A stretch of DNA of 58,873 bases, the filler included, from Sphacelaria rigidula (lineage: Eukaryota), in the NCBI GenBank assembly GCA_964200075.2. It is 5 parts of 5 records of this genome, joined end to end, with 100 filler letters (N's around TTAATTAATTAA, not from the genome) between each part and the next. Parts side by side here need not be neighbours in the genome. Positions count along the whole stretch, not along the records: positions 11,798 to 23,491 come from CAXNAA020004616.1; 4 more parts are not named here. The stretch is one strand, 5' to 3'. The notes under the pieces are model-generated. The model did not search any database. It was not told the origin of the DNA and saw nothing but the letters and a program-made list of their open reading frames with translations. This document shows positions 6,791-54,738 of the stretch, in pieces (position 1 is the stretch's first letter; every line of letters starts with the position of its first letter). The position numbers and the translations under genes were made by a program.

Positions 6791-7275
6791 GTAGTAGTAG
6801 ACTCCTTGGTTGAGGAGGGAACGAGACTGCTGAACCCTGCTCGCGAAAATGAGAATGGCAAGCACCTCAGAAGGAAGTTGGAGCTCTAAAAAAGAGTTTA
6901 GTGAAGTAAAGTTCCTGTGTTGACCTTCCTCCGGCGTGTCCCCGGCTGATGTGCGGCAACACATATTTACCGAACGGTGGAGACCAGCGTCCAGAATGAT
7001 GACAATGCCATTGCGGTTCTCTACACCAAATTTCAAAGCACTATACTCTCAAAACTGGCATGCGAAATCGCAGAGGATTCGGGAAAACAGGGCCGAACAT
7101 TGAAAGGGGTCTCAAGCCTCGTTTCCAAAATCCACAGTTTTTCGGGAATGGCTTTGCAAAAAAGATCAACTATGGCAGGAGTGCCCAAAAAAAAACTCCA
7201 AGCAAGCATTGCAGAGCATTGTGGTATTTGTCTGGTCTTGTTCTTGTCGTTGAAGTGTGATGTGCAATGTATAGA

Positions 7276-7712
7276 CACGGGATCTTACAAATTGGGGATG
7301 GCTCTTTTATTGGGGATGAGAAACCCGGAAGATTAAAGTATTCGTATCCACTCCAAATCTTCGAAATATGGATCCATTTCTTTACCACTGATGGCTATTG
7401 ACAACTGCTACACGCCATAAAATTTGGATTTCGATCACCGAAATGTTGGGGTTCTATATGGAAAATCAATTTCGGAACCACATTGGCGTCCGTTCGGACA
7501 CCCGCAATTCCCGAAAATTATTTATTCGCCTAGGACCCCAACATTTCGGTGATCGAAATCCAAATTTTTATGGCGTGTAGCAGTTGTCAATAGCTATCAG
7601 TGGTAAAGAAATGGATCCATATTTCGAAGATTTGGAGTGGATACGAATACTTTAATCTTCCGGGTTTCTCATTCCCAATGAAAGATCCATCGCCAATTTG
7701 TAAGATCCCGTG
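7276..7712. mobile_element. Foldback MITE family A, full copy (437 bp)
   Basis: Arms of about 180 bp are near-perfect inverted repeats, CACGGGATCTTACAAATTGG...CCAATTTGTAAGATCCCGTG. Confidence 0.9.
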
Positions 7713-7939
7713 TTTATTCCTGAAATTCATGAATATAACTTGGCCTTGACCCCGAAGGTATGCGAAGAATTAAAGCTTCATGCACACGATTTTTTACTCT
7801 TTATATACTTTTATTTTTTATTCATTTATGAGATTTAGTACCCCCCCCCCGACCCCCCTCGAAAACCTCCAGGATTCAAAAAGGGGTATAGCGTCTCGGA
7901 TTTTTTGGGGGGGGGCACTCTCGACTATGGACATATTTT

Positions 7940-11697: not shown

Positions 11698-11797
11698 NNN
11701 NNNNNNNNNNNNNNNNNNNNNNNNNNNNNNNNNNNNNNNNNTTAATTAATTAANNNNNNNNNNNNNNNNNNNNNNNNNNNNNNNNNNNNNNNNNNNN
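11698..11797. other. Artificial contig-join spacer
   Basis: 44 N + TTAATTAATTAA (stops in all six frames) + 44 N, exactly 100 bp. Confidence 0.98.
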
Positions 11798-11859
11798 GGG
11801 GGGGGGGGCTATCGTAGAAAGTGTCGCGAGTTACTGCCTTTTGTTGTTGTAGCAGCAGT

Positions 11860-14800
11860 GGCGGCTTTTCTAAAGGCTACTTTTAACGCAGTAGCCTCTT
11901 GCCGGTGGCGTAGATCCGATTGGCTGCGGTCTTCGCGTCGCCACGCCTCCTCAAACTGTTCCGCCTCTTTCTCGACCTTCAAGTCTCATTTCCCCCACGT
12001 TCATCGCCACAGTGATGTAGTCTTGCGAGGTTTTGACCTCGATATCGCAGACGAACCACTCCCTTCCCCCTTGCTTGGCACAGTCCCTAGCGCACGCAGG
12101 TCCACCTGAAGGCGTCCCCCGCCCGGTGATTGAAAGCCAGCCAGCGTCTTTGGGCTCTTGTTTGGGCAGCCGTCCGAACATGGTGCGTTTGGAAAGACTT
12201 GTTTCGTCCTGCTGGTTCCCTGCGAACTACAATTGACGCTTTCGGGTGATCGTCTCGGTACGCTCGCAGTTCGTAGACTCGAGCACAGCTCTATGCGAAA
12301 GAGGATTGTGCTCAGTACGATCCTTACTGCGGAAACTGACAGCTCGCAGGAAGGCATGTGGTGGGCAGTGGGGAATTTTTCGAAGTCCTCGGGGCGGAGT
12401 GTCCATATAGCACATCCGTACGACACAGGTTCCACCACTTCCACTTCGAGTTGCCGGAGTGGGAGAGAGAGTCTGGCGTCGAGCCGATCGTATAGCTGGA
12501 GCGCGTGTAATCGAAGGTACGTCCACGCAGGAAGAGCGAAATGTTGTCAGACAACTCTTCGCGTGTTTATTGTTGTACACGACGGGCACCAACTAAATGC
12601 CTCTTCCCCCCCTTTGTAAAAAAAGGAGGCGATTTCGACCACCCTCTATCGTTGAACGGCTCGCAGTGCTGACGGGGCGCTTGATTCCGATAGGAATACT
12701 CGCAATCTGCGCTACAGCACCGCCAAGGTAGACACACTTGGTTATCTGCTTGTACCGTTGATTTGCCGCCTTGACACGCAGTACCGTCTCTGGAGAGCGG
12801 GGTGCTGACCACAGGCGCATGACCTCCCTTACTTTCCTTTTCTTGCGGCACTTTAACAGTGACGCCCTTTCCCTCCGGCGGTATCCCGTCAGACGTTCGA
12901 GCAATGACGATGATACTAAACAAAATCTCCGAGGGCTCCCCGACCAACACAAGCTCGAGGAATTTAGTCCGATCAATCTGGTCCAATCGATTTCCTATTA
13001 CCCATAGCTCTTAGTGTTTTTTCAATTTTAGTGAGGCCTGGCGGATTACGACGTGGCCGCGCTGTCGGCCGTTTCGCGATGTTTTCGATAACGGCTCGAT
13101 CAAGAGTTGCCGATATTGCATCCAGCAAGTTGGAGGAATATCGCGCTCAGCTCTCATAAATTGGACCTTCGTGCTGCAGTAGGTTCTCGTCCCTGTCCTG
13201 AATATACTGCTGACTCTCTACTTCTTTTCCCAGCAGACTCCGCTCTCCTTTCAGATGCTCGTGCCACCCCCTCATATCCCACAGTCTAGTGTACTCTTCT
13301 GGTTCCGTCGCGTACATATTGAGGTGCCCACCTTTCCACCCTCGCCTGGATCACCGCTTTGAGCCCTCCTGCACACTACTCGCAAAGCGCACCATGCGCG
13401 GCTACTTCTCGACCCTATTTCATCGTCAACCTCGCCCTTCACCGTTCATATCAAACCTGCTCGAGCTTTGCTCGGATTGCAGCATCCTCGAACCATCTTG
13501 ATAAATTGCTTTCGGATCGGACAGGGCATCACCGTCTCAGCGGAGCTCAGGAGGATGTCGGCAAAGTTCGCTGCCGTTTGACCGCTTGTATCGCAAGTTA
13601 TACCCCGGCTGAGCTCGCTGATGATGAGCTGCGTGAGTTTCTCATCTCTATCGGTGTCAGACGTTATCGCTCACCTGTCCATGCGTTTATGTCCGGTAGG
13701 GGTCCACCGAGATCTGTTGCGTGCGAGTCGACCAAGAAGGCTCACCGAGGTGCACATGATAGTGTGTTTTGAGTCGTCGGCGAAGTGGGCGCTTGAACGT
13801 AGACGGTGACACGTGCGCAATCATGAACCCAATGCACTTGTGGTCCGCGGGACCTTTGGTAACACCGTTAAACTTATATGCTGTGTTTTCCTTGGGGTTG
13901 GGGGAAAACGTGTTGACCAGGGCAAGTCTGCTCCCACCTGTAGTCTGTAGCAACGCAATGCCATTCGTGCCACTTCTCGGGAGTCCTAGTGGTATGTCCC
14001 CACCATTCCGAAGTCATCCTCTCCCGTTCTAAACCCAGTCCTAGCGTTGGAGTCTATCAAAACAAGCAGATGGTCATCGTTCGGAATGCCGTTGACAGTG
14101 CTGTCCAACTTAGTCAAGCTTAGTCCAGAACATCATTGTGTGTGTGTGTGTCTATGTCTCTCTGTCTCTCTTCTCTCCTTGACGTGTCCGTGGGAGCATG
14201 GACAGCCACAGCCGTAAGGGCACTTGATTTACCTGCTAGGTTGAAAGTCATCGACATGAGGCATTCGCTGATGAACACCTGTATCCACGTTACGTTGTTA
14301 ACGATAGACTCCTTGACCACCAACTCAATTCCTTGTTGCTCAGACCTTCCCTTGCTCCCTTTCACAGAAGAAGCCGTTTTCCGCGGGAGGTCACTCACTT
14401 CTGTCCTGGCCGTGTCGTCTTCGGCAGTCCGAGATTGCCACACCCGACTTTGTACCATTTTTGCAAAACCACTACAGCATGGCCAGCCCCATTCTTTTTC
14501 GTGAGGGACAATGTGCGGGCGTTTGAGAACGCCACTATCGGCCCCCCTATCCGCGATCTAGCTCTACTTTTTCCTACACCTACACTCTTTACACCGCCCT
14601 CCCTATTTGCCCTTTCCCTCCAGAATATCATTTTCTGTTATGCTTTTATTTTTTCCCCTTGGTCTATCTCCCCAGGGAGCTATCCCGCCTTGTATTTGGG
14701 TCTCACGAGGACGGTGAAGCCATTCTAGCCCGCTTCGGCCGCTCGCTCCAGTCTGCCGAATCTCACTCTTACTGACACGTATCTCATCTCCATCGACGTT

Positions 14801-14930
14801 CGTCAGTGACAATGTCTTCACGCTGGATACACATCCGCAGCTGCGGGATTGAGCATGGTCTTAGTACTGGGCGGAGCCCCGCAGCTACTGGCTTTAGCTT
14901 TAGTTCAACAGCATCGACGAGACCGACAGG
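11860..14930 (-). mobile_element. Degenerate RTE-like non-LTR retrotransposon, probably intronic in the KAP gene
   Basis: APE endonuclease fragments (NARTLSL near 14510, VAVHAPT near 14200, LALVNTF near 13920), RT C-terminal CVYLGG near 12730, and YGCAIWTL / KRTMFGRL tail at 12420-12170. Many frameshifts; most of the RT core appears deleted. Boundaries approximate. Confidence 0.8.
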
Positions 14931-15273
14931 CTAGGCTGTGTATTGCACCAGCACTGACGCAGTACACGGACTAGTCTGTAGGCCATATACTACGCGTGTG
15001 GTTGTGTCGTTTGGAGGCTGGTTGGGGGTAGGATACTCGGACACAGCCAGCTCCAGTGTACTACATGCAGAGACGCAGGGGATAAAAATACAGATGCCTA
15101 CGACGTACCTTGGCACCAGAACATTATCCATAAAAACGCTGCTGTACGTGTGGGACACAACCCGTCTTGTATTTTTCCCGATCATTCGACGGAGGCATCC
15201 CAATGTTCGGTGAGATAAATGTCTAGACGTTTTTCTTCTCCTTCATTCCTGCAACCACCGCACGTAGTGGTAC

Positions 15274-15430
15274 CTCTTTGCGCAGAGCTAGGCCGAAACT
15301 GTCCTCGACGGCCGCTTCGATGATGCGTGGGTCGACAGCCAAGAGCACGATGATGGGAGTATCATGGCCGGCTTCGGTCAGGAGGAGATGGACAGCGTGA
15401 AGCATCTGCACTATCTTCTTCTGCTCGCAT
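15274..15430 (-). CDS. KAP NTPase exon 10
   Basis: cccag|A (completes Arg) CEQKKIVQMLHAVHLLLTEAGHDTPIIVLLAVDPRIIEAAVEDSFGLALRKE|gtacca. Confidence 0.92.
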
Positions 15431-18400
15431 CTGGGTTCGGTTGTTTTATGAAAAAACGAGGCATCGTTTACGTGGGAACCAGAAGGTGATATTCGCGACA
15501 GACGACAGTTTTGCACTACTGACCGGGCATTGCGGAATAATATGTGCATCTTTCAGCAAGTGTACCACTTGCGAAACCTCGGGCTTTGCTGCCAGAATCA
15601 TTCTCATTTCCGGAGTACGCAATAAAAATAACAGGTGTTGTACTGGGAAAAAACTTCAGCCTGAGAGCAACACAAAGTTCGACGAATTTTACGTTCTGGT
15701 GAAAAACGAACAAAGCAGCCTCGAATACAAATCCCAGGAAAGCGATTGAAATTATCGTGAGCGATTGAAAGTGATCGATAAAACCGCGGCTGATGGGCAT
15801 CCAGTGAACATTCGCCTTTCGGTATCCCCACGTTTCCAGAGTCATGGTGACGTAGGCGCTGCACATCTGAACCCAGACTTTTCTCATTGAGGGATCCTGA
15901 AGTTAGGAGCTACGCACGAGTTATGGATCAGGACATTCCCGTTTCAAAATTCATTACAAACGTCCCCAGCCCTTTGGAATGCTAATCGCGGCGTGCTTTC
16001 ACATACTTCATACGTCGTTTTATTGGATGGGATAGAGGGTTCCCAAGAACTCAAACCTCGGGAAAAATTAGTGTACCCTATCTTAACACTCCTCCAAGCC
16101 CCGCAAAGAGTCCCTAGTCCTACCCGAGAACATTTCGAACCGATTTTCATATGGTCATCCGCAAGCCTGCTGTCGTGCCATATTTTTCACCGGAATGTTA
16201 GATAACGCGTGAGTGTACTCATTCCACGAGGTGTTCAGCGCACTGTGTGCGCCTTATACAGGGAGTTGGGGCAGTATAGCACAAGGTGAAAAAAACTACG
16301 TTGACAAATTCCTGCATGGTACACCTCTGCCATGGTTCGCCGACGGTATAGTGCGCTGTACCTGTCCAGGTCATCGATCGTGACCACCATTGTTATCTCC
16401 ACATCTCTGTCCTTCTTGTCATTGTGTTTCTTGATCACCTATAACAGTACAATGGGGCATAGTTGAGGGGAATTGTAGAGATTGGTTCGGAAGCTCCGAT
16501 ATTGGATATGGACAGCTTGGATTTACGTGGACATAATTTCGTCCGCTTCGCAGCCATGTCGGTAGTCTGAATGACAATCGAGCGCGATTCCATCAGCCAT
16601 CGGCCCTGCTGGGGCGAGTCCTCCCGTATTGACTCCTTGTGGTGACGTGGGACCAGATACGAGGAGCACGGTACAACTCGTTACTCCTCACACGCAGCCC
16701 CTTGGTATATCCAACGTTTGAACCACGCCAGCACCTCCATTTCAGTCCGCCTGAGTACGACTTTGCGTCGGGCTGTCGGGCACTGTGCCTGGTGCGTTGT
16801 CCGCTATCATGAATGAAAGGATATTGGCTGGCCTCAAGAAGTGTTCAACCTCATAATAAGAGAACTTTGAGACGATAGGATATGTAGGTGCGACCTATAT
16901 GAGCTACGTGCTTCAGCTGTTGAGAAGCGGCTGCACAGCGTCCATTCTTCGAGAGCAGGTTACCCAATGCGGTATCACAGCGAAGGCAGCAGTCCGACTA
17001 GACACGGCGTGTACTATCGCATAACCTGCACCTTAGACATGGAAATATGGGGCGTCCACCTGGAACCTCAAATCTCTATCTGGGACTCCTATCTGGGACT
17101 TCTATTTTCGCCCGTACAGCACACGACATTCAACAAGTAAACGCTAGTAACCGATGCACTGAATACATACAAAATACTTGAAGTTTATAGACGAACCGCT
17201 GCATCCCGTTGGTCTAACTGGTACAACACCGGCCACTTGGGACGGGAAGGTTTGAGTCCGAAATTCGATGGATACGGTCTTTTGGGGCACAATATGACAT
17301 CTATCCATGGAAGCTTGACGACGTGAGTAGCGAAGAAAATTCGACAAAATTCGATGCGGTACAAGATTTGTGATCCAGCCTTCGCTGAGTAAATTTCAGG
17401 CAGTTACCGAGGGAGAGATGGGTCGTTCTCTTGAGACTGCGGACACGACCCGAGGAGTTCGGGAGGGGGGCGTGACGTACGACGAAAAAACAGCAGTAAC
17501 CGCAAACGCGTGCACTGCAATGCACGTTACCAGTGAATGCTTATCCAGATGTGTGCCCTACCATCTCACATTGCACTGCGAACTACCAGCGCATGCTATC
17601 CTAGATCATCAGTACGCAGTGCACTGCTGGTCAACGGACTTTAACACTGGATTTTACAAATTGGGGATGGGTTTTTTATTGAGGATGAGAAACCCGGAGA
17701 ACTAAAATCTCCGTATCCACACCAAATCTTCAAAATATGGTTCCATTTCTTCACTTGCTGGTAGCTAATGACAACTGCCACACGCCATACAAATTTGGAG
17801 TCCGATAACCGAAACGTTGGGGTTCTAGATGAAAAACCAATTTTGGGGAACGTCGGCGATCTGATCGGATCATCTTAATTCCTCAAAATTGTTCCTTCGC
17901 CTAGGACCCCAACATGTCGGTTATCAGGATCCGAATTCGTATGGCGTGTAGTAGTTGCCAATAGCTACCAGTAGGTGAAGGAGTGTAATTGTATTCCGAA
18001 GATTTGGGCTCGAAGATTTCAACTCTCCGGGTTTTTATCGTCAATAAATAATCAATTCCCAATTTGCATATCCCGTGTTCTAGGGCCAGGGTCAGGGCCA
18101 CGGTTGTCTACTTGATTCAGTTGAGTTGGCATGAATCTGCATCCAAGCAGAGTAGCGTCCCGGTCTACTTCCCGCTACATCCCTCATGGCCGAACCTATA
18201 TCCCGCGGCCCGAGGTGGTGGCTGTCGACGCCTCATATGGAGCTTGCGCGACAAAGCAGGGCTTCCCACTCGAAGAAGCACGCTCAATCGCACACTTGAC
18301 TGCACTCATATCTGTTAATCTTACCGCAAAGCATATCTAGATGGGCATGCGACGAGAGCCACTCGAATATCATTTCACAAGCACCTTCGCGCGGAGACGA

Positions 18401-21400
18401 CACTGCAGTACATGTGACTCACACCAAAAAGCATTTCGAGCTCACTGCGCACGGTGGCCATCAACCCTCCGCTCACTTCGCCTGCTTCGCTTCCGGTCTC
18501 CAGCGACACAATTTTTTCCAGAATCTTCCCGCCCTGACTCCGCCAGAGGAGTGGGGCCACCTTAGTCGATGAACGACAGCGCGTGCGAGGATTCATTCCA
18601 TGGACATCAGGCCAAAGATATGTAACGACCACGGCCATCGTTCTTTGCGATCTCGAGCACGAATCAGCCGTGTCCTTGCTTGGCTCATTACAGCTGTTCC
18701 TATCCCTCCCCGCAGGCAGCGCACAATGCAAAGGCATACATGTGCATCATCGCTGTACGGTACGTGGAGGAAGAAGAGGTGCCATCGCCTGTGTAGTTTT
18801 TAGACTCAACGTGTCACCTCTTCTTCCGCTCTCCGAATTATCGAGCAGATGTTGCAGATGTACTTGATGCCAGTCGCTGGAGAAGAGAAGATATACCGCA
18901 AGTTGCGCGTCCAACTCCTCCGACGTATCATATTCGGGTAACTTATGTCCACACGCACATCACGGTAGACTACCGAGCGCATAAAAATGTACTAACGGTG
19001 CTAATTCTTACCTTGTGCATGAGCTATATCTCGTATCCTCACCCTCTCCGCCCCCGCCCTCGATTTTGTGGGACGGACGATCAAACTCTAGCTTTCAGCA
19101 CACATCACTCGGTGGGGAGCCAGCTGACACTGTATCTTTCACCTTGAGAAAAGCGGGAGCTACAACGGCCAAGCTAACTCCGGTATATTTTGCCCAATTC
19201 CAGAGGTCCGACAGCTCGTCTTGCAGCCATATAACCAACACCGCGATCACGGCCGCCACCACAAGCCAGAAACACATGGATGATTGGATCCACGATGATA
19301 GGCTGAGATCGTCGAGCTCCTTCACCAGAAGAATGATGAGAAGGGTCAAAACGTCAACACAACGCAGGCATTTCAAGCAATTGAATGAAAGTGAAACGTG
19401 TCAACAAACAGGACGCCAGGAGGAGAGCCGCTACTATCTTGGAATAAATCGTCGACATCAACATCAAAATGATGAGTATCATCATTCCTATTATATCATC
19501 AGCATCATGTTCACCTTCAGCGCACGCGCATGTCGCACCGTGTCACTGCCGAATTGTGGGCATGCCTCCACCTGTAGAAAAAGTGGAGAGCAGCCGATGG
19601 AAATGTAATGTCGTTAGGCATCCTCGGCGGCACAGCTACCGCCCGCGATGCTCGATTACCCGTAGCCTCACATTCGTGACTTAAGGCGTACCGCCCTTAT
19701 GCACTTTACCATACAGCATCAAAGTCACCGCACACGAAGAGTACCTCGACACCATACGAACCGGAATTGGGGGCAGTGACAAAGGAGCAAGCCATACCGT
19801 AGTCCAATAACGGCCTGCGCCGAGGTGGAGACTCCATAGCACAACAAGCATACGTTCCCAAAGCAGCCTCTGCTTCGGGCTGGCTCACGTCAGCGCTTGC
19901 CTTTTCGGAAGAACATCACATGTTCGCCGTTTGCGAAATTGCACATCGTTCCTCGCGAATGATCGCTATGCTCACCTCCTTGAATATTTTTTCGATAAGA
20001 GCACCCCACAGCACCGTGGAGCCCTGAGTTACGCAGCGAACGAGGGGGGTCGGCGAAAAAGGGTAGTATGAATGCTGCCTTCAACGAAATGCACCTCCGG
20101 GAATCACACTCTAGCATTTGCTAAGCAGGGTTAGACCCACCACCGCCTGAATGGTAAAGTTATGATCCTGAGTATTATCGCCGCCTTGGGGGTATTGGGC
20201 CGCTCAGCTTTACTCAAGAAAAGGGTGGTGATGGAGGGATTTGTGCCCGTATCTCATTCTCATCCCACCGTAGATCTGAAGAGTATACAACCACCTTCCA
20301 CACTCTTCGTTGCACGACTGACCTGAAATTCCCAAGCGCTGTATTCGACGTGGATATACTCGTGTCGCTTCTCGACCTTCGCCTCAGTGGTGGCGTCTGT
20401 TGGCACCGCTGGGACTCGACCTGTCAATTCTTGGTCGTCTTCGTTGCCCTCGAGAAATCTTCTTGAGACCGTCCCTTGTTCTTCGTCTGCCGGTATCACG
20501 TACTTGCTATCGAGGTGTCAAACATAGCGACGGAACGGGGACGTGTGCGGCGCCGATGACATCATCCACACAATCGGAGCTCCATGAATATAGTGCGCTT
20601 TGACACGTAGGCCTGACTCGACACGTTTCTCGAGTAGGAGGTATCTTATCCTACACACTTTTTTTCTCCACTTACTCCCGTCGCCGAACACAACCCGTCA
20701 ACTTCAGAATCACCGGTAACTGCCAGAGAGTTCACTATCAGTGACATCTGGTCAAATTGTTTCCCCGCTAAGGTATCCCATTGTCTCTGACAATCAAATA
20801 CTCCAAATGTAATACACTTCATTGGCCGACCTTTTCCGCCGTGAATATGAGGACCGTCGCATGCGACGTGCCACCTTTGCAAGTACCCGCTCACTACCCG
20901 TTCAAGGATCGCTTGCCACATAAGATTCGTAGGGCTCACCTCTCGCCCCTCATGAACCGTACAATTCTAGCCACACCCACTGCCTTGGGGGCCAACTTTG
21001 GCGGGGCCGAGCCCTTGCGTGATGTGAACCTCTCGGTCGTTATTTTGATCGTGTCGGTGAGCCACTGTGAAGCTCTTGACTTCGAGCAGGCTGTGCCCTC
21101 TACAATCTTCTCCAGTTTGCTCTTGAGTAGCCCAACTGACGTGCCGATAACCGTAAAGGCAAATGTCAGGAATAGCCCTGCCCTGAACAAGTGCATGCAT
21201 GGTGGGGGAGAAATGGGCAGGCTGGATGTGCGGTTCCTTGCCAGGGGGGTGAGGAACATTTTGAGCACTCTCGTTTCGTGGTAGTAGCGCCGCTAGCGGT
21301 TGGGACGCCGACCAACGGCTGTGTGGAAGCATTTGGGGGGGTTGTGAGATTGGGCTAACTTTCATCTAATGCGTACTGTTGTTAACCATGTGAAGAATGG

Positions 21401-22746
21401 CCCATCGCGGGAGACCGTGTGCAGAATTAAGTCGAGATGAATTCGCAAACAATGAATGTTTTCAACCGCTCGAGAAGCGGAAGCTTGGGGTTCTACTGGC
21501 CAAAGGGAATCTGTGATGAGTGGAGACTCACGAAGGCTCGACGATATTTCATGCGCGCGGAGACCTGCCGACATGCGTTGCTCTCGGTGCCGCATGGATT
21601 CTCATGAATGCAACAGTTACTCCTCGGGCATGAAGCACTACTCAACATTACCCAAACCTGGTATTTTTCACGGCTGACCATGCGCCGCGCTTTGTGCTGC
21701 ATTTCGTCAAGCAGCGCTTGACCTCGCGCAGCAAGAATGACTGTGACCAGGCAGAATAGAAGGGGTACCGACCAAAAGGCACGGAAAGGGAGACACGATG
21801 TAGAAGTGAATATTTGAACACTGCAAGATTGTTTCAAAGCGATCTTTTTACGGGGTTTTTGGTCAACAAGACTCTTAGCACGGTTAACGTTTGACCCCAA
21901 GATTCGGTATCGAGATAAATAAGTACCCGTCATCCCTCAACGGACCAAGGTGATTCGCATGGTCGATTTTGGTCGACATACCGACTAGCCGGTTGTCTGG
22001 GGTCCTACGAGTGTACAACCCCATGTTCCCGCTCTTTGACAGACTTAGCTTCGTGCTTTTTTTTTGTAGCTATTCACTGCTATTCATCCGAAGAAACCGT
22101 GTATCTGGACCAAATACGGCGAGAAAAACTTCCTGATAACACGGGGTTGCGCTCCGCACCGCTCCGACAACAAGATATTGCGAAATATATCCTGTGCACG
22201 ATCCGCTTATTCCACTAACGTCCACCGATTCTCGAACCTTCGAATGAAGATGATGAATCATGCGCGAAGAACCTCCACATTACATGGATCAAGTATCTGA
22301 ATGTTGACTACTGCAGGACGTCGATAACATGATACAGGTGGGACATTACCTTGAAGCCAGTTACGGGGTTGAATATTGCCCATCTTGTTCTTCGACTTTT
22401 TTTTTGGAGGGGGGCATTATTCGATTCTGTTGTGCGTGTCTTGCCGTATGTGTGCAGAGGAGATGCGTCTTACGTCCATCTGTGCTGGAATGTGTATGTG
22501 CGCCGGTCATCTCTGATCGTTTTCGTGTAGTACGCCCCAACGTTCACGGTTCGCATCAAAGCTTACCTTTCCGGCGCCCCATGGGGCGAATATGCCTACT
22601 ACGACCGGCTTTTCCATTTGCTCCACGACGTGTGAGAGGGCTTCAGCGAGGTGATCGAAGCTCATTCGGTCGATGCCTTGAATTCCTTCCCGCACGAGAC
22701 GATGTCTTGTTGCCACCGGAGCCACTGATAATCGCGCGATTGTCAT
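15274..22746 (-). CDS. KAP-family P-loop NTPase with inserted hydrophobic helices; spliced gene, at least 10 exons, 3' end not in contig
   Basis: Exons 22746-22567, 21740-21679, 21182-20940, 20506-20323, 20023-19976, 19571-19515, 19319-19143, 18560-18423, 16438-16362 and 15430-15274 join through GT-AG introns with matching phases into 1323 nt (441 codons) without a stop. KAP motifs in order: D-x-MSF, Walker A GIFAPWGAGK|SFLL, VEYSAWEFQ|GSTVLWGAL, hydrophobic pair, GLMATVRSEL, Walker B VVTIDDLDR|C, IVLLAVDPRII. The start codon is uncertain. Confidence 0.9.
16362..16438 (-). CDS. KAP NTPase exon 9 (Walker B)
   Basis: ttatag|VIKKHNDKKDRDVEITMVVTIDDLD+AG|gtacag. Confidence 0.92.
17645..18077. 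mobile_element. Foldback MITE family A in KAP intron 8
   Basis: Collinear with 7276-7712; ttaa|CACTGG...CCCGTG|ttct. Confidence 0.88.
18423..18560 (-). CDS. KAP NTPase exon 8
   Basis: ctaag|VAPLLWRSQGGKILEK...GGLMATVRSELEMLFG|gtgagt; resembles the G-F/L-M-x-x-V-K/R-x-E-L helix that precedes Walker B. Confidence 0.82.
19143..19319 (-). CDS. KAP NTPase exon 7 (predicted transmembrane hairpin)
   Basis: gaag|ELDDLSLSSWIQSSMCFWLVVAAVIAVLVIWLQDELSDLWNWAKYTGVSLAVVAPAFLK|gtgaaa; AAG acceptor follows a long pyrimidine tract. Confidence 0.8.
19515..19571 (-). CDS. KAP NTPase exon 6
   Basis: ttttctacag|VEACPQFGSDTVRHARALK|gtgaac; 57 nt. Confidence 0.8.
19976..20023 (-). CDS. KAP NTPase exon 5
   Basis: actcag|GSTVLWGALIEKIFKE|gtgagc; 48 nt. 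Confidence 0.88.
20323..20506 (-). CDS. KAP NTPase exon 4
   Basis: gatag|C KYVIPADEE...HEYIHVEYSAWEFQ|gtcagt; equivalent of the KAP V-x-FNAW motif. Confidence 0.88.
20940..21182 (-). CDS. KAP NTPase exon 3 (hydrophobic segment)
   Basis: ttgttcag|G (completes TGG) AGLFLTFAFTVIGTSVGLLKSKLEK...MRGE+AG|gtgagc; 243 nt, phase 2 to phase 2. Confidence 0.8.
21679..21740 (-). CDS. KAP NTPase exon 2
   Basis: Pyrimidine tract + cacag|SFLLREVKRCLTKCSTKRGA+TG|gtcagc; completes GK-SFLL and ends in phase 2. Confidence 0.85.
22567..22746 (-). CDS. KAP NTPase exon 1 (Walker A)
   Basis: ...IDRMSFDHLAEALSHVVEQMEKPVVVGIFAPWGAGK then donor gtaagc. The 5' boundary (ATG 22746, or an acceptor near 22725) is uncertain. 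Confidence 0.9.
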
Positions 22747-23491
22747 TCATCCGATTTGTAGTAGCAACAGGCGGGAGCAACGAGGCTTGCGTCAGCTTCG
22801 GGTCGAGAAAGAGCAATCGCTGGCGGCGTCAAAGATCGTTCCAGCGTCCGACCACAGTGCTGTTCAAGGGGCGTGTTGATGGCATCGTGTGGGTAACATT
22901 CGAGGGATATAATTCCTCTGTCCCGTAAGTCAGATGAAATATGGAGTACAGATCGTATCTCCGTAACAAAGGTGCTGACGATGCAATGGTTGGGTCCATA
23001 AGACACGACGCAGACGATGCGACCTATAGCAAAAAAAGAACCCATATTCTCATACATAGGTCAACATATTCCCCATTTGTAATGTTTTTCAATTAGCTGT
23101 TTTGTGACTTTTCGGGTGGAGGAAGTACATGACGGCATGCTGGTTGAGGGCGCGAAAGAGAGCGGCGACGTTGTGAAGGGTGGCAATGTACCACGAGGAG
23201 GCCTTCAAAACGACTTGGGAGTATCTAGCATCAAGACCCGATCACGACGATGACGGTTAAGTAGTTTCACTTGGTTTTCGACGTCATTCAGTCCCCGTAG
23301 CAGGGGTGAGATGCGGCTGTTTTAGGGCTGACTAAAAATGTTTCGGCCGTACGGTCGCATGGTGGAAATGGGTGTACACCCCCCTCCCCCTCCCCCTGGT
23401 TAGACACCCATGAGGCAGTGTAAAAGCCATGGCTGTCTCTCTGGAAGTGGCGATACCACAGAATGAAGCAACTCATTGTTGGCTGTCATCC

Positions 23492-23591
23492 NNNNNNNNN
23501 NNNNNNNNNNNNNNNNNNNNNNNNNNNNNNNNNNNTTAATTAATTAANNNNNNNNNNNNNNNNNNNNNNNNNNNNNNNNNNNNNNNNNNNN
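23492..23591. other. Artificial contig-join spacer
   Basis: Same 100-bp spacer. Confidence 0.98.
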
Positions 23592-35285: not shown

Positions 35286-35385
35286 NNNNNNNNNNNNNNN
35301 NNNNNNNNNNNNNNNNNNNNNNNNNNNNNTTAATTAATTAANNNNNNNNNNNNNNNNNNNNNNNNNNNNNNNNNNNNNNNNNNNN
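35286..35385. other. Artificial contig-join spacer
   Basis: Same 100-bp spacer. Confidence 0.98.
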
Positions 35386-36142
35386 CCCCCCTCAGGTGGG
35401 GGGGAAGGTCGCGAGCCTGGTCCGGCGATTACCCGGCGCACTCCGTCCCGGCTTTGTGGGGATGCGAGGTCAATGGTCTTATGACTATGGTATCCATGAT
35501 CATGAGTACACCCTCCCCCCACTCAGGTTGAAGGGCACTTTGTGGCCCGCTCTCAAAACTGGTTCAAATGATCTCGTGTCGTCGGGCCTTCTATTCTGTA
35601 CCCCTCTGACATCTGCAGGAAAAGCTCTGAGGAACACTAACGGTCGCTCCATTTTCAAGTTTGAATGGACATCATTTGAGCGGGTGCTGACCCTTTCTGT
35701 GCGTGTGCTGTGCGCGCGTCTCCCGCAAAACATCGTTTCTCATTGGATTCTGAAAAAATATTCGTGCAAGGTCACGCACAACGTGCTCAGCTGATGAGCA
35801 GCACCGTCATTGTGTTGGAACTGTGCCATGTGCGATTACGCAACGCACATAGCTATCACCGGTCCTCAAGTATCTTGGAATCCGATCTACTGATCGTGGC
35901 GGCGAAAGCCACCGAAGCCCTTGCAGTAGTAGTATCAATCAGGCACAGGCGGTTGGACACTTTATCCCAGCATATGCGTTGCGGCTCTTTTTTGTCGCGC
36001 AGCTCGCGGTCCCCGATGTCCCTGGCGTGGCGGAGGTGTGGCGCTTGCATTGGGAGGCCGAGCTAGTCAAGCTCAATTCGGACATGGAGGTGTGTCTTGA
36101 GACCAGAAGAAATGCATTCGAGTAGGGTGAATGTAAATTCTT

Positions 36143-38020: not shown

Positions 38021-41000
38021 ACAACGACGTAAAGTACATGTGTGCGTATTTCAGAGTACGACTCCAAAACCGGCGTGAGGTTTTGCGGCGGTGTGCATTT
38101 TTGGGCGTCACCCTGAACCAGCCTGTAGAGAACCGGGGTATGCGAGTCATGCTCAAGTGTATGCTATGCTTCACCGCGAATCATACTCCAATGTGTGTGC
38201 ACGTCAAGGGTATGCGATGCGTCAGACACTGAGATGCAAAGGTACAGCGCATGGCGAAGGTAGCAGGAGCACGATCAGATTGTCAGTTCCATGAGTCGGC
38301 TGTTCTTTCCTTCAATTGAGATGCATGTCCAATAATTGCCTCGCAGACAGCCTCCGCCGACGCTTTAGTCAGCATATCCGACCATAGATGAGCGGGAGGG
38401 GGGGGGGGGGGGGAAGAAAGAAGCTTTGGGGACAGGAAAGGGGGGGCTTAAAAAAAAGGGAGGAGGTAGTAGGCGAAAACAGAAACGTGGGAAGTTTTCT
38501 GTTCATGATATGTTTTTTTCATCGAGGCGTTACGATTGCTGCTGGAAAGGGGCATGACTTATTTTACTTGTTCTGTTGTGTGCGCGCGTACGTTTTTTTT
38601 TTTTTTCTCGAAATACGCGGTTTACTTCTTGTTCGTCTTCGTGACTTTTTTTCGCTGAGACGTTGCGATTCCTGCTACAGTACTGAAAAAAAATGAGTGG
38701 ACTGGCTGCCTGCCTTCCTTCCTTCCTTCTCTGCTCTTGTTTTTTTTCTCCCGTCTTTTTCTAAACGAAGCACGCGAGGTTTCCCTCCGCCCGCCTTTTT
38801 CTATTCTTCATACCTCGTGTATTATTTCGCGCGTATGTGTGCTGTGTGATTGTTTTTATTCTTCGAGCAGAATCGCGTGCAAGATCGACTGTCGGAGGGC
38901 ACATGGATGTTACCCCCGGACCCGGCAGAGCTCCAGGCAGCAGCGGCCAAAAAAAAGATGCCCTGGTGGAAGGGGTGAGCCACAGCATGAATAATCACGA
39001 GATTGTTTTTCTTCTCACGATCGTTTTAGAGCGATTGACTGTCGCATTTTTTATGCCACCCACCCAAGCCATCCAATAGATATAAAATGGACGTGGTCAT
39101 AAGATACAAGATAGAGGTCGTGTAGGTGATGTCAGTAGACGGTAACCCGCTCGTTGAAGGACACTCGAAAAAGGGATGGCGGGGGGGGTAGAAAGGAAGG
39201 AATATAGGATGAACTGAAGAACTGGAGAACAGAAGTGGAAAAGGTGAAGATCCGAGGCTAAGAAGCGGTATAGATTGCGAGAAAAACCCTCCACGTTGAG
39301 GAGGCTGCACTACTAGGGGCAGGACCGGTTTAGCCACCAACTCCTCAGGAGGGAGACACAAGGACTGCTATGGCGGCTCAACGAGAGCGATTGATCGATT
39401 GATTAATTGCTCGCATTTGACTGATGTATGGGCATATTGGGTAGGCTATACCCGATGTTTTGGTACTTTGAAAAGTCGCACGCCATCTGCCTACGTCAGT
39501 CACAATTGAGTGCATGGGCTTTAGAGAGGGGCACAACAGCACTGGGCTGGCTGCTGCTGCGGGAATGGGTTGGATGTCCACTTTCCAAGATACCAACAAT
39601 ATTGGGTATACCCTACTCTACTCGCCGTTGGACTGATCCCCGAGGGGAGTAGCCGTGGTCGCAACGTGGATACATAGGTGAACCCTAGGTAGACAGTAAC
39701 GGGGAGAGTCGCGAAGGTGAATCGAGCAAGGGAGAAGATGAAGAGAAGAGGGAAGATCAACTTAGATTTGATTTTTTTCTTCCTGCCCCCCTCCCCCCCC
39801 CCCCCCTATCCCGCGCGCGCCCCTCCCCTGATTGTGTGTTTCGTGCTTGTTTCTGTCTCTTGACTACAGTACTTGAGTGTGGGTATTTTTGTCTTTGCTT
39901 CGGTTTCTTCTTCGGCAACATTTCGCTTGCTGTGTTTGGCTTCGTCTCTGTGCCCTCCTCACTGCCCCCCTCCCGTGAGCCTGGTCCGGCGAAAACCCGG
40001 CGTGCTCCGTCCCGGCTTTGTAGGGATGCGAGGTCAATGGTCTTACGACTATGGCAAGCATGATCATGAGTACACCCCCCTCCCGTGTCCCCGCCGTTTA
40101 CTGTGTCGTGTTATCTCGTGCGCGGTGTTGTTGACACATAGGCTCGTCCTTCGAGCTGCCGCGATGTACTTCAACTACCTCCAGGCCACACAACACATGC
40201 GACGCGCCAAAAAAGACTCGGAGAAAAGGGAGAAGGCTGTGCCGCGACTCCCGCTCTTCTAAATGAAAAAAAAGGGAGGAAAATCCGAACAAAAATCCCC
40301 CCTGTTGATCTGTCTGATCGGCGCGTTAAGTGTCGGGTGGGGAGGGGGGGAGGGTTAAGGTAGGGGGCGTACTCATTTGTTACGTCCCTTAAGTCGTTTG
40401 ACCATTGACCACGCATCCCTTTCGAGACGGAGCAATGCGGGGGAGAGAGGGGGGGCAGGGGATCTCATCAATTGTTCGCTCGGGAAGGAAGTTAGTGCTC
40501 TAGCTTTGTGTACGGGTGAGGTAGTGGTGTGTAGCTTTTTGTATAGAGTAATACTCGAATTATTAACGTTTCGAACACCAGGCGACAAAGAGAAATGACT
40601 CGAGAGAGGAAACAGGAGTACAGCTTTTTCTGCGGCTGTTGATGCCGTTTTCCCACGCCCATTCGCCCCCCTACAGTACAGTACCTTATGGAACATGAAG
40701 AGACAATTCGGGCACATGACTCAAGCCACCCGCACGACCGGTGAGCCTGTAACTCGTTCAAAGTTGGTCGTACGTATTTTTTTCTTTCAATATTTGTGTG
40801 GGGTATTCATGTCTCTCGATATTCAAAGTTTCGGATCAAACAGGAACCGTAGTGAGTCGTGGTAAACGTTTATCCTAAAAGAATCACCTGACATTGAATT
40901 AGTATGTATACGCTTTGAATGCTTCATATCTGTAGAAACAGGATCCTCCCGAGCTGGTCCGGGGAAGAAACCCCGAGAGTCGTTTGGCCAGAGGATGATG

Positions 41001-41570: not shown

Positions 41571-41707
41571 TTATTTCACTAATGAGTTATCTGATTTGCT
41601 CTATTTTGATGAAATTTCGTTTTTTTCGTGTGTTCTTTGCCCGTAGCAATCTCGTGTGTCTACAGCTACACGTCGATGTGCTACTCAGTAAAATCAAAGG
41701 CTTTGAA

Positions 41708-42321
41708 CAGCCGATCATCGAAATTTAGGAAGGATTTTTTCATTGAGGATGATAACACGGAAAATTAAAATCTCCGCATCCACGCCAATTCTTCGAAATA
41801 TGGTTCCATTCCTTCCATCTGCTGGTAGCTATTGACAACAACTACACGCCATAAAAAGCTTCGATTCTGATGGCCGAAATGTGGGGGTCCCAAGTGCAAA
41901 ACAAATCTTGGGAGTTTAGGTGATCCGGCCGGATCACTTGGATTCCCACCATTTTCTCTTTCACCGAGGACCCCCAGATTTCGGTCATCGGAATCCAAAT
42001 TTTCATGACGTGCAGTCGTTGTCAATAGTTACCAGCGGATACAGGAATGAAACCATATCTCGAAGAAATGGTGTGGATGCGAAAATTTTAATTTTTGGGT
42101 TTATCATACTCAATGAAAAAATGAAAAGCTCAATGTCGATGATCAGCTGTTATTTCGGTTATCGGAATCCAATTTTTATGGCGCGTAGTAGTTGTCTACA
42201 GCTACCAGGAGTTGAAGGAATGCAGCCATATTTCGAAGATTTGATGTGGATACGAAGATTTTAAGTTTCCGGGTTATCATCCTCATTGAAAAGCTCCACC
42301 CTCAACTTTGATGATCGGCTG
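41708..42321. mobile_element. Family-A MITE with variant termini and a duplicated right arm
   Basis: CAGCCGATCATC...GATGATCGGCTG; the right arm ends once at about 42149 and again at 42321. Confidence 0.82.
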
Positions 42322-43090
42322 TTCGAAGAGTAAGTCCTTGCATATATATTCCGTAAACACAGAAAAGCGCCAGTGTACGATTCTTTGAAATTGCGACGGG
42401 TAAATGTCCTGCTCTCGCATTCATACTTGTGGTATTGTTCGGAAAATTATCTTTGCAATATATGGGATTGTGTGCGACCTCTAACGGACGATCCTGAAAA
42501 TGGGAACGAACTATGTTGATGGGGACGAAGAAAATGAAATGGTGCTCAAAGTTGTTCGAAATGGTACATATGCTGTACCTTCCGATGATGTAGAACGAAT
42601 GAATTTCCCCGACCTTCAACAATCCAAACAATTCCGAACAAATGTCAAAGGGTTTATTCGAAAATGGGGTTCAACATCGTGGTGAGGTCGAACCTGCTTT
42701 TGGAATTTCGCCATTCTTATATGGAGAGTGGGAGCGAGGAAAGCGCCTATGCCTTGTATATTTGTGTCAGAAGCGAAGTAAGAGTGGCTGGGTGTACCCA
42801 ACTCATTCGGTGTGCACGTGTGTCGATCGATGACGATGCCACCGGAGGAGCAATGGCGGAGAGAAAGCTCCTCGCCCGCGTACATCGTGCGCCTTCGTTC
42901 GACGATTCCCGACTGGTCGGAAGATTGGCAATTGTATGCCACCGTACAGACCGTTTGCCGGCCCTTCCGTCGGCACAACAAAGGCCGGTGGGTTGTATTC
43001 CGTGGCCCGTGTCGAAGGATAAATAGTTTTTGTCCTTTGTATTATTGGAGAGTGCCTAGACTGAGTCGACCCTATGACTGAGGGATCAGA

Positions 43091-44250: not shown

Positions 44251-45123
44251 CTATACAAAAACAGAGGCAGGGATTTCCGAGTACCCCCTCACCTCAAAAC
44301 TCTCTAGGAGCGTGTCCGTGAACGTGGTTTGCGTGACAGACAGCGTGCCTCTATCCCAGTCTCTACCCACTGTGCACCCCATGTACCAGGTTACCTCTCC
44401 GAGATTGTTCGTTGGGAACTTTTTGTTGAGGATTTGACCCACCTTTCCTACATATTCCTCAGAACCACTGATAAGGATGTTGTCCACATGGACGACTAAA
44501 ATCACACGCACGTCTCCTGCATCCTCCATATTGAAAACATATGGATCAGCTTCGCACTGCACCATCCCGACATCCTCCAGTAAAGTTTGACACAGAAGAC
44601 GAGACCACTGCCTGCCTGCTTGCTTGATCCCGTAAATAGATTTTTCAAGCTTTACGGTCACGTCTGTCAAAACCGAGCATCCTTAAGGCAATCTCATGTA
44701 CACTTCAGTATCCATTTCTGCTTGAACAAAAGCCTGTGTCACATCAAAATGGTATAGCGGCCACTCTTCCTGAACTGCCACTGCCATGACCAGTTTGATG
44801 GAGGCCATAGAGGGCGTTGCCGCGAAACTCTCGAAATAGTTGACTGCAAAACGTTGTCCAAATCCTCGCGCTACCAACCTTGCCTTTGCCTTCGTTACAG
44901 TACCGTCTGCGTCAGTCTTCCAACAAAAAACCCACTTCGCTGAAATCACGTTCGCTGCTTCCGGTACAGGGCCAATCGAAAATGTTCCAGCCTTTTCGTG
45001 ACCTCCTAGCTCGGCCTGCATCTCGCCTAACCATGCCTCTCGAAATTCTGACTTGGCAATGTCATCCATACTGGTTGGTGCTACCTCTATTTCGCTCACG
45101 TGTAGACCAACTGGTGAACGCAA
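44251..45123 (-). pseudogene. Copia reverse transcriptase (two ORF pieces)
   Basis: ORFs 44683-45123 and 44251-44670 with RVT_2 motifs, separated by a stop. Confidence 0.93.
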
Positions 45124-46099
45124 ACCGAAGTCAGGCTGCCCTACCCTGTTTTCCTCAGCGACAAAACAAAAAAAACTCGTTTTCAGCTAACTCGTGTTGA
45201 GTCGAAACGATTGCGTCTTGCCCAGCCACCTGTCCTGCTGCCGCGGTGATCATCTCCATGGTTGAGCATCTGTCCTCCGCCATTCCCGTCAGCGCTATCT
45301 CCGCTTCCTTCTTGCTTTCCTCCGCTCCGCCAGCCACCAGCGTTTCGTCTCGTGCGTGCACCGACCCCATTGCCTCGCGCGTTTGGCTCCTCGTACGCCC
45401 CGCCCTTGGTGTTGGTACCCGGTCAGCCCACGCAAGACGGCGTTGCTCGGTCCTCGGGAGTTGAGGAGCGTCGCCGCCCCCCCCGCCATCTTGCGCATCT
45501 TGCGGGACCCGTGGAAGAGGGTGACAGTACGGGCGACGAGGCAGTGTCCGATGCCGATGTGAGCGTCGGCATAGGTGCCCGCGTCGGCGTAGGTGTCGGC
45601 GTTTGCGCTGGTGTCTGCGTCGGCGTAGGTATCGGCGTCTGCGTTGATGTCGGCGTCGGCGTAGGTGTCGGCGTCTGTGCTGGTGTCGGCGTCGGCGCTG
45701 ATGTTAGCGTTGATGATGATGATGATGATTCCGGCTCCACCTCACCCCCTCCGTTGACAAAATCTGGAACGGGGATCTCTGGTCTCCCCCCGCCTTTCAC
45801 CCCCCCTCGCGGGGACGGTGAAGGCAGTTCGCTCCCTCCACTACTGACGGGGATCTGTGGAGCTTCTCCGCCCCTCCCACCGAAGGAACTCGGCGGGGAG
45901 GACGGCGCGCTTGAGGAACCGCTGGGCGAAGTGTCCACTGTCGAGCTTCCCGTCCTGTCTTCACCCACATCCTGGCCTTGATCGACGCTGGAATACTTCA
46001 GCTCGCCCGGCGTCTGGATCGCTTGCTGTAGTGTTCGGGGGGGGGGGAGCGGACGTACGTGCCCATGTTACATGTTGTCTTGTCACGGAGATAGTTCCT

Positions 46100-46930
46100 C
46101 GTATAGTCAGAACTCGCATCGCGTCACGTGGGTAGCCCTCGGCTGGGCTCAAGTATCAGTATTTTTCGGCCTTCGGCTGTAATTTATTTGTCCGCTTCCT
46201 CCTACAAAAATCAGGCTTCAAGAACGGAATGTGAGCACCTTCCGGTGGTGATCCATACCACATCTCATGCGGTGATTTGTGGCGCGGGTTAGCGGAGGTA
46301 GCGGTACAGTTCAGGGCGTGACACGCCCAGTTTGCCTGTTCAGCCCACAGGCTGTCACCATTTGGGATGCGCTCATCGGGGTACAGCTTAGATGCTTGGA
46401 TTCTGGCCGCAAGGCCTGCTGTTTCGATGATACCTAATGCTCGCTCTGCTACACCGTTGAACTGGGGTGAGTCGGCAGTTGTCTTCTCCTACTTGATCTT
46501 TTCCCTGTCGCACAGTTCACCAAATGCACCCTCCGAAAATTCACCCCCGTCATCGCTACGGACTATCTCAATTTTTCTCGGAGAGACCCATGCAATGTAT
46601 TTCGCGAAGTATCTCTCTGCCTCATCCTTCTTACGGAGGAAATACAGCTTTGTGTGCCGTGAGTGATCATCTCGGACAATCATCGTGCACGACTTTCCCC
46701 CTTTAGACTTGACTGGTTTCGGTCCGGAAAGATATACAAACACCCTAGACGCTGACTCAGCTGCTCTCGTGGGCGTCAATCTTGGAATCGGTGACCGCAG
46801 TCCCTTCGCCTCTGAGCAGCCGCGGCAGGGCTGCAGCTCCCCAGTCAGCTGCTTTCCCTGCTGCCTCACCGTCTTCCTCAGTAAATCCTTGTGGACGTGA
46901 GCGTGGGAACAGTAGAACTCGTTGGTGTCA
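46100..46930 (-). pseudogene. Copia integrase
   Basis: ORF 46489-46869 plus downstream SPQFNGVAER and NPRHKSPHEMWYG frames. Confidence 0.9.
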
Positions 46931-47079
46931 GCGGTCTATAGACTCTAGCCATCATTCTTACCTAAGGTCAGGGGCATTTGTAGATGGAGTTGCGGGTCTG
47001 ATTGCCAGACTCTGTGATGGTGACCTCCATGACGAGTAGGCCCGGTTTTGCTACTCTGGTGGAGAGAGGCTATGGTCCT

Positions 47080-47179
47080 NNNNNNNNNNNNNNNNNNNNN
47101 NNNNNNNNNNNNNNNNNNNNNNNTTAATTAATTAANNNNNNNNNNNNNNNNNNNNNNNNNNNNNNNNNNNNNNNNNNNN
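47080..47179. other. Artificial contig-join spacer
   Basis: Same 100-bp spacer. Confidence 0.98.
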
Positions 47180-51613: not shown

Positions 51614-51940
51614 CTACCATAACATAGCCCAGACATAGGCATGAAATAAAGAAGCTAACCATCCTTTTTCTCCATCTACCATAACACAGCCCAGACATAG
51701 ACATGAAATGAAGAAGCTAACCATCCTTTTTCTTTAAGCTACCATAACACAGCCCGGACATAGACATGGAATAGAGAAGCTAACCCTGCTTAAAGCTACC
51801 ATAACACAGCCCGGACATAGACATGGAATAGAGAAGCTAACCCTGCTTAAAGCTACCATAACACAGCCCGGACATCGACATGAAATGAAGCAGCTAACGA
51901 TCAGTTTTCCTCAACCTACCATGATACAGCCCGGATATAA
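51614..51940 (+). repeat. Tandem array of 57-63 bp units (5 full + 1 partial)
   Basis: CTACCATAACACAGCCC(A/G)GACATAGACATG...AAGCTAAC units start at 51614, 51676, 51739, 51796, 51853 and 51916. Confidence 0.95.
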
Positions 51941-54733: not shown

Positions 54734-54738
54734 ATTAA

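Follow-up and report, generated by a model that had tools for sequence, protein, structure and literature searches.

A transcribed, spliced locus for a KAP-family P-loop NTPase in the alga Sphacelaria rigidula, and its LRR-containing ochrophyte relatives

Identification of a transcribed KAP-family gene

We analyzed a 58,873-nt stretch of DNA of Sphacelaria rigidula (assembly GCA_964200075.2), composed of five joined parts and referred to below as the window, in which positions 15274 to 22746 had been predicted to hold an intact ten-exon gene for an NTPase of the KAP family. This analysis revealed, on the minus strand, what is very probably a real nuclear gene of an alga, spliced by the spliceosome and transcribed, whose product is assigned to the KAP-family P-loop NTPases by a homology and descent that are not in doubt. 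Sequence similarity and trees place the predicted protein in a clade of ochrophyte algae, other members of which carry leucine-rich repeats (LRRs) and a C-terminal extension. The explanation that we favor goes further: the ten exons would form the internal block of a larger gene, whose product would act as a membrane-anchored, nucleoside triphosphate (NTP)-driven switch. Taken as a whole (identity, larger gene and mechanism), it is given slightly better than an even chance.

The assembled contigs of four sequencing runs of one study (X6-X9), taken by guess to be of RNA type, were aligned to the part of the window comprising positions 11798-23491. Only 0.07-0.12 of the sampled words of the gene's stretch are present in these runs; runs X1 and X2 contain 0.97 of them, i.e. 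nearly the whole stretch, and a run labelled 'algae metagenome' contains half. The X6-X9 contigs skip nine intron stretches of a minus-strand gene that are retained in the DNA runs, and all nine joints have CT..AC ends on the plus strand, equivalent to GT..AG on the minus strand. The contigs are therefore spliced transcripts, and the guess as to their RNA nature was borne out at this locus. The joints are found in (i) all four runs (18557>19140 and 20506>20940), (ii) three runs (16434>18419, cut +4, and 20022>20322), (iii) two runs (15430>16362, 19318>19514, 21181>21657, cut +1, and 21740>22567, the last in X7 and X8) or (iv) one run (19568>19973, X9 only).

When joined in a script, the ten exons give a single open frame of 448 codons as far as position 15274, which includes the motifs APWGAGKS, YSAW, GLMATVRSEL, IDDLDRC and LAVDP. 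These are already visible in separate stop-to-stop open reading frames (ORFs) of the minus strand. Chance does not explain how nine GT-AG junctions, all supported by RNA, would leave a single frame open. The transcripts agree with the original prediction in the position of the gene, the number and phases of the exons, and the presence of the five motifs in one open frame. Its count of 441 codons proved to be too low, and of the split codons that it proposed (TG|G, AG|C and AG|A) the last two were recovered, whereas the first is AG|G in the RNA-supported model. At least one exon boundary had therefore been drawn differently.

The X6-X9 contigs yielded 20 variant rows, 12 of them within exons, where eight are synonymous and four are not. 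With 331 synonymous and 1061 non-synonymous sites, the ratio of the non-synonymous to the synonymous variant proportion (pN/pS) is about 0.16, and the binomial probability of the synonymous excess is 0.002 over all sites and 0.018 when only transitions are counted. The exon variants point in the direction of a protein under constraint, an independent test that sides with the purifying selection proposed earlier.

Family assignment and exon structure

The KAP_NTPase profile of Pfam (PF07693; cut-off 20 bits) was compared with eight of the ten exons singly, exons 5 and 6 being too short. Exon 10 alone exceeded the cut-off (21.4 bits, profile positions 163-204), and exon 1 gave a collinear match of 16.5 bits (positions 1-33). 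Weak matches were also obtained in two of the four largest ORFs, with 18.9 bits (positions 1-36) and 23.5 bits (positions 162-204). Exon 1 weakly matched the PADLOC models PDC-S20, PifA (E 4.3e-4) and QatA, and was matched by QatA in NCBIfam as well. The family proposed at the outset is confirmed by the exon 10 match and by the similarity of the spliced protein to the algal protein P0013 (E 4.5e-38; E-values against relatives are given at Z=1e6). The family itself is already known, and automatic annotation tags its algal members with PF07693. The window encodes profile positions 1-204 of 293.

Exon 1, as first drawn (22567..22746; RNA-supported part 22567-22724), encodes the start of the KAP domain and, in its translation, the in-frame ATG of M28 (22663-22665) and residues A54-K60 (22567-22587) of the Walker A motif APWGAGKS (residues 54-61). 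The Ser of GAGKS is the first codon of exon 2 (21658..21740; 83 nt), which ends in the split codon AG|G. Exon 3 (20940..21182; 243 nt) encodes the first hydrophobic segment and a basic loop and ends in AG|C. It is followed by exon 4 (20323..20506; 184 nt), with an acidic loop and the YSAW motif, which shares 82% identity with P0001, a genomic ORF of a relative. The short exon 5 (19976..20023; 48 nt) lies between the joints 20022>20322 and 19568>19973, and the sequence VEACPQFG of exon 6 (19515..19571; 57 nt) was aligned by tblastn with VENxPxFG of the relatives. Paired hydrophobic segments are encoded by exon 7 (19143..19319; 177 nt), and a helix recognized in the alignment (GLMATVRSELEMLFG) by exon 8 (18423..18560; 138 nt). 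Exon 9 (16362..16438; 77 nt) ends in AG|A and carries IDDLDR (16362-16378 plus 15430) of the Walker B motif IDDLDRC (residues 391-397), in which D, L, D, R and C are invariant in our alignment (A1). The conserved part of exon 10 (15274..15430), CEQKKIVQ...LAVDPRIIEAAVEDSFGLALRKE, ends at the GT donor AAAGAG|GTACCA.

Features shared with the KAP family as described in Pfam are the conserved helix before Walker A, the (F/Y)xAW motif, hydrophobic segments near the P-loop domain, and a Walker B of the form hhhhDDLDRC with its following strand (LAVDP here). The gene of the window differs in lacking the YLxKI...PF strand and the TPRxxKR helix, and in having nine introns. Kyte-Doolittle averages over 19-residue windows reach at least 1.6 at residues 89-107, 272-304 and 311-330. 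The hydrophobic pair before Walker B is common to 12 relatives, and the location of hydrophobic segments between Walker A and Walker B is in line with the proposed membrane NTPase.

The KAP family, with Kidins220/ARMS and PifA, is said to have been described by Aravind et al. in 2004. Kidins220 possesses ankyrin repeats and SAM and KIM motifs, none of which has a counterpart in the window. Kidins220/ARMS and NKPD1 are likened to the window protein by description only, as membrane-embedded eukaryotic KAP NTPases placed by name in the same Pfam family (excerpt of PMC13001434). The same excerpt describes KAP NTPases as ATPases that are bound to membranes and serve signalling and defence, and PifA as a protein without transmembrane helices that excludes phage T7 at the membrane (PMC13001434). 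PifA of plasmid F (locus L001, 12446-14671, minus strand) and the window protein align in two collinear blocks around Walker A and Walker B. They are very distant from each other (16.7 bits, E 0.14 at Z=1e6), and PifA forms a long-branch outgroup in the tree. Judged by sequence, the window protein shares the family of PifA and is not its ortholog, since similarity over the full length is absent.

Algal relatives with LRRs and a C-terminal extension

A HMMER search with exon 10 over 1.84 billion representatives (E ≤0.001) retrieved 11 proteins, including the window's own ORF; the identity of the relatives ranges from 93% down to 50%. Among them are short genomic ORFs of relatives with 93% (P0003), 80%, 69% and 62% identity, and four further relatives (P0009-P0012), of which P0009, P0010 and P0011 are longer proteins. 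Two other hits, P0004 and P0008, were discarded as spurious, being repeat proteins (cadherin-like and others) matched in many short stretches. A search for longer homologous proteins with exon 10 as the query gave no match. Beyond the position of the donor, P0010 (a EukProt transcript) and P0011 continue with VSGMEYLDKIIHLPFCIPP... and ITPRKLKRILNIY, respectively, which is the predicted Y/F-L-x-K-I motif.

A search with P0010 identified (i) P0013 (EukProt g20951.t1, 752 aa), (ii) P0014, a hypothetical protein of the xanthophyte Tribonema minus, and (iii) P0015 (783 aa) from the brown alga Scytosiphon promiscuus, annotated as 'unnamed protein product'. The named relatives thus come from two ochrophyte classes, Phaeophyceae and Xanthophyceae, which, with the 'algae metagenome' run, fits the expectation of a spliced gene of a non-animal eukaryote. 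In addition to P0013, the spliced protein matched P0015 (E 9e-35), P0010 (1.1e-19) and P0016 (1.4e-13); over 214-268 residues it is 33-35% identical to the algal relatives.

P0013 and P0015 score 128 and 116 bits, respectively, against PF07693 (P0013: 128.4 bits over profile positions 2-285) and are LRR+KAP proteins, whose LRRs match plant receptor-kinase ectodomains in PDB. P0010 and P0014 are assigned to the same group. The window protein has in common with these ochrophyte LRR+KAP proteins the order of motifs and hydrophobic segments and a Walker A that starts with Ala. The differences are the plant-type LRRs at the N-termini of P0013 and P0015, about 260-290 residues that the clade possesses beyond the point where the window protein stops, and a loop between the first hydrophobic segment and YSAW that is about 70 residues longer in the window protein. 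The YLxKI motif is present in 12 of 12 relatives, 59-63 residues past Walker B and followed by TPRxxKR. It would be expected near residue 452 of the window protein, just beyond the donor at 15274. The anticipated motif was thus found in every relative and nowhere in the window. The term 'intact', as used in the original prediction, holds for the ten open exons only, since the C-terminal third (beyond profile position 204) and, probably, the true first exon appear to be absent from the window.

The 5' and 3' ends of the gene

Transcript contig X9 record 28 (298 letters) matches positions 22567-22725 with 159 of its letters, and 131 further letters lie off the aligned stretch 11798-23491. The genome reads ...ttatcag|TGGCTCC at 22725/22724, which is a likely acceptor. 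The extra matching G at 22725 fits an upstream exon ending in G, as do eight of the nine exons of this gene that precede an intron. The ATG at 22746, which stands directly after a TGA, is doubtful because the contig leaves the genome at the acceptor; on the evidence of this one contig, it is probably intronic. The protein either extends into an upstream exon outside 11798-23491 or begins at the in-frame ATG at 22665.

At the other end, the similarity of four genomic ORFs (P0003, P0005, P0006 and P0007) to the gene ends exactly after ...RKE and is followed by a Val codon corresponding to the GT of the donor, which indicates that the intron position at 15274 is old. The alignments of the window protein to the algal relatives all stop at residue 447-449, which is again the donor. 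Contig X8 record 20 ends at 15272, two letters beyond the donor, which would be consistent with a branch point of the assembly graph provided that the following exon starts with GT; this is a weak hint and not evidence. The C-terminal part was found nowhere in the window, so that either the remaining exons lie outside it (the 3' part more than 15.2 kb downstream) or the copy is truncated. We favor a larger gene, because the exons are constrained and the C-terminus is universal among the relatives. Its 5' exon would lie beyond 23491, and its 3' exons, starting at about VSGxEYLDKIIHxPF, beyond the start of the window. The balance between this and truncation is roughly even.

Several observations weigh against the favored explanation. 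As regards splicing, contig X7 record 12 runs unspliced from 15090 to 15319, across the donor, and none of the joints listed (low-cover contigs) departs from 15274. As regards the C-terminal part, (i) tblastn with P0009, P0010, P0011, P0013, P0014 and P0015 did not detect it across the window on either strand, (ii) hidden Markov models (HMMs) of the C-terminal part and of a 32-residue motif gave best E-values of only 0.31 and 0.41, respectively, over all six-frame ORFs of at least 8 aa in the window, (iii) Pfam gave no KAP match on 133 downstream minus-strand ORFs, and (iv) motif patterns for the C-terminal part matched nothing in the window. Similarly, no LRR was recognized by Pfam in 140 upstream minus-strand ORFs of at least 40 aa, nor in the whole window by an N-terminal LRR HMM (best E 6.1) or an LRR pattern; LRR exons outside the window would be compatible with the unseen upstream exon. 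The selection test comprises 12 variants from low-depth contigs, nine seen in two runs and three in one. Finally, three hydrophobic segments are an odd number in a family for which two or four transmembrane helices are expected, which conflicts with the placement of both Walker motifs on the same side of the membrane, unless the first segment forms a hairpin or does not span it.

Some of these observations would be explained if the locus were a 3'-truncated copy, deprived of the C-terminal third of the KAP module and lacking LRRs, whose mRNA runs past the old donor. We consider this a serious possibility, although one with clearly less than an even chance. The frame read past 15274 gains 16 codons (VPLRAVVAGMKEKKNV, 15223..15273, coding only if the donor is unused) and ends at a TAG stop at 15223, which would give a product of 464 residues (437 from M28), either a regulatory or decoy fragment or the product of a dying gene. 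Besides the unspliced contig, contigs from all four runs X6-X9 tile positions 13770-15319 without joints, as truncation would predict. The part 3' of exon 10 (13770..15222), on whose ORFs no Pfam family was recognized, may be a 3' untranslated region or the start of a long intron. The absence of C-terminal homology from the whole 58.9 kb, with 15 kb downstream empty, fits truncation as well, and so do the frequent repeats and the fact that the only other recognizable coding remnants in the window belong to a broken Copia element. Against truncation stand the skew of the exon variants to synonymous changes, unexpected for a dead gene, and the retention of YLxKI in every relative. The read-through is seen in one contig of one run, and the tail is not conserved in P0005, P0006, P0007 or even the 93%-identical P0003. 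Moreover, a C-terminal deletion inactivated a bacterial KAP defence protein (excerpt of PMC13552941).

Non-eukaryotic relatives and phylogeny

Pattern scans derived from alignment A1 detected eight loci in viral and 517 in metagenome sequences, 80 of which were retained. Trees without animal KAP proteins were constructed with FastTree (48 rows) and with IQ-TREE under LG+G4 (22 rows) and under a C20 mixture model. In all of them P0010, P0013, P0015 and the window protein group together as one clade, with a support of 99 (FastTree), 100/99 (LG+G4) and 99 (C20). The sister of this algal clade is a group of KAP proteins from AT-rich and giant-virus contigs (support 81, 81/81 and 96, respectively). 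An approximately unbiased (AU) test of a grouping of the algal clade with the loci L010-L012, chosen after the tree had been seen, gave p values of 0.087 (LG+G4) and 0.032 (mixture model), neither of them decisive. The bacterial origin suggested in the original prediction was not borne out, as the trees place the algal clade, with moderate support, beside the giant-virus KAP proteins.

The giant-virus relatives come from L002 and L003, each with two ORFs for the major capsid protein of nucleocytoplasmic large DNA viruses (NCLDV) above the Pfam cut-off, and from L004, a contig named as a giant-virus metagenome-assembled genome (GVMAG). They score 84.0 (L002 and L003) and 81.4 bits (L004) against the window protein and belong to the sister group of the algal clade. 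They differ from it in being intronless, in a Walker A that begins with Ser, in a G+C content of 24-29%, and in C-terminal halves that do not match the algal C-terminus. On L003 (2863-6955), ORFs with a VWA and a caspase domain lie immediately behind the KAP NTPase ORF, a trio that has the look of a virus-carried conflict or cell-death module.

Among the bacterial relatives, L010 (109.8 bits) encodes TIR+KAP, L012 (86.6 bits) kinase+KAP, L013 nSTAND1+KAP and L011 SnoaL/glycosidase+KAP. The fusions of L010, L012 and L013 share with the window protein the KAP core and the hydrophobic pair between Walker A and B, and differ from it as uninterrupted single ORFs with other N-terminal domains and about 27% identity. 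The kinase+KAP ORF is flanked, within L012:1625-11162, by a PLD-SNF2 helicase and a Type ISP restriction-modification enzyme. Both this fusion and the TIR+KAP protein (L010:868-3333), located on metagenome contigs, are candidate defence genes. The C-terminal domain of P0013 is most like those of the bacterial L010, L011 and L012, not those of the viral ORFs.

It is very unlikely that the locus is a recent transfer or a contaminant, i.e. a KAP gene of bacterial or giant-virus origin or a piece of an endogenous giant virus. Such an origin would suit the sister relationship to KAP proteins of AT-rich contigs, two of which carry NCLDV major capsid genes. It is at odds with the nine spliceosomal GT-AG introns removed in RNA, with an identity of only 26-29% to the viral and bacterial ORFs, with a G+C content of about 50% at the gene compared with 19-29% in the AT-rich contigs (L002-L004, L015 and L019), and with the presence of relatives in two ochrophyte classes. 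The virus-alga link itself may be regarded as a lead, not a result.

Predicted mode of action and possible role

According to the favored explanation, hydrophobic hairpins would anchor the protein at the membrane, with the NTPase on the cytosolic side, and NTP binding and hydrolysis would switch the state of the protein and hence that of any sensor and effector parts fused to it or associated with it. In full-length members of the clade, an LRR sensor would be coupled to a C-terminal output, by analogy with nucleotide-binding LRR receptors (NLRs) and ROCO proteins. This membrane-anchored, NTP-driven switch is suggested by the relatives and is put forward tentatively, as the less probable part of the explanation. 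The switch would serve a conflict or immune pathway, as bacterial KAP NTPases do. Four of the latter protect against phages, and mutants of one of them, EF_KAP of Enterococcus, indicate that Walker B and the fused C-terminal region are both required; defence has been demonstrated for these bacterial proteins alone (excerpt of PMC13552941). An immune role of the algal protein is plausible, and is suggested by the domain fusions and gene neighbors of its relatives rather than by this gene.

The main alternative to the switch mechanism is a housekeeping role, in which the product would be a membrane scaffold or signalling NTPase resembling Kidins220/ARMS and would take no part in defence. We regard this as rather unlikely. 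KAP is indeed the family of the signalling scaffold Kidins220 (excerpt of PMC13001434), transcription of the gene was seen in four samples not known to have been challenged, and the copy in the window has no recognizable sensor or effector domain. The nearest sampled relatives, by contrast, carry fused TIR, kinase, STAND or LRR domains, or have restriction or caspase genes as neighbors, and the range of identity among the exon 10 relatives, from 93% down to 50%, hints at a diversified family.

A bolder proposal, which we consider improbable but worth stating, is that the clade represents an unrecognized ochrophyte class of membrane-anchored, NLR-like immune receptors, in which the KAP NTPase would replace NB-ARC or ROCO and would in some members be fused to plant-type LRRs. 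Such a class would share ancestry with giant-virus KAP proteins, through genes exchanged in one direction or the other between virus and host, and would fall within the bacterial defence proteins that combine KAP with TIR, kinase or STAND domains. The window gene would be an expressed member maintained by selection. It would then either be complete, with outermost introns of great length, or represent a paralog that lacks LRRs, is shortened at its C-terminus and modulates the full-length receptors.

In brown algae and their kin, multicellularity and immunity evolved independently of plants and animals. The transcribed KAP clade, with its LRR-containing members, its TIR-, kinase- and STAND-fused bacterial cousins and its giant-virus neighbors, is a candidate, open to testing, for an additional family of receptors or switches in these organisms and a possible trace of gene traffic between viruses and algae. 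The LRR fusions and viral neighbors make the clade of greater interest than the incomplete locus itself. What is gained from the window alone is smaller, namely a ten-exon gene model with evidence of expression and constraint for a locus that is incomplete as seen. Among the literature matches listed, none dealt with KAP NTPases of brown algae, stramenopiles or giant viruses; the supplements of brown-algal surveys, outside this scope, may list the family. In the excerpted main text of a large brown-algal genome survey, ROCO GTPases and NB-ARC-TPR proteins are the only expanded immunity-related families named, and KAP NTPases are not mentioned.

Genomic surroundings

The window contains 178 ORFs of at least 90 aa, of which 150 were compared with Pfam (20 inside the span of the gene and eight at the end of the window were left out). 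Only three fragments of a Copia element were recognized. The window is gene-poor, and outer introns of great length would suit such surroundings. The fragments constitute a degenerate Copia-type retroelement (44254-46935, minus strand), in which RVT_2 is divided between two ORFs (57.5 and 80.4 bits) and the integrase core is weakly matched (24.7 bits, below the cut-off). An 18-nt tandem array is located inside this element (45545-45724), and a second array, of five units of about 57-63 nt, is present at 51614-51939. The ORFs at 13690-14557, at first likened to a LINE endonuclease, were dropped as a candidate, as neither Pfam nor PDB sequences supported this resemblance.

A repeat resembling a miniature inverted-repeat transposable element (MITE) was found at 7271-7717, with two 155-nt arms that are 95% complementary and separated by 137 nt. 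Its five or six diverged copies are located at 17608-17972 (within intron 8), 41671-42330, 53485-53652, 54702-54869 and 55840-56096. The copy in intron 8 is covered by many contigs from all four RNA-type runs, some of which join it to 11820-11826 and 23441.

RNA-type contigs also pile up at 23108-23491 and 11798-12187, many of them overrunning the ends, with joints from 11825 to 23396. These pile-ups probably reflect a high-copy transcribed repeat that adjoins the N runs described next; Rfam gave no match in the window, including these two regions. Four pairs of 44-N runs, with 12 bases within each pair, are present at 11698-11797, 23492-23591, 35286-35385 and 47080-47179. They recur every 11,794 bases exactly, a regularity more suggestive of masking than of gaps in the assembly. 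Beside the first pair, the segment 11628-11697 is 90-91% complementary to 35445-35513 and 40009-40078.

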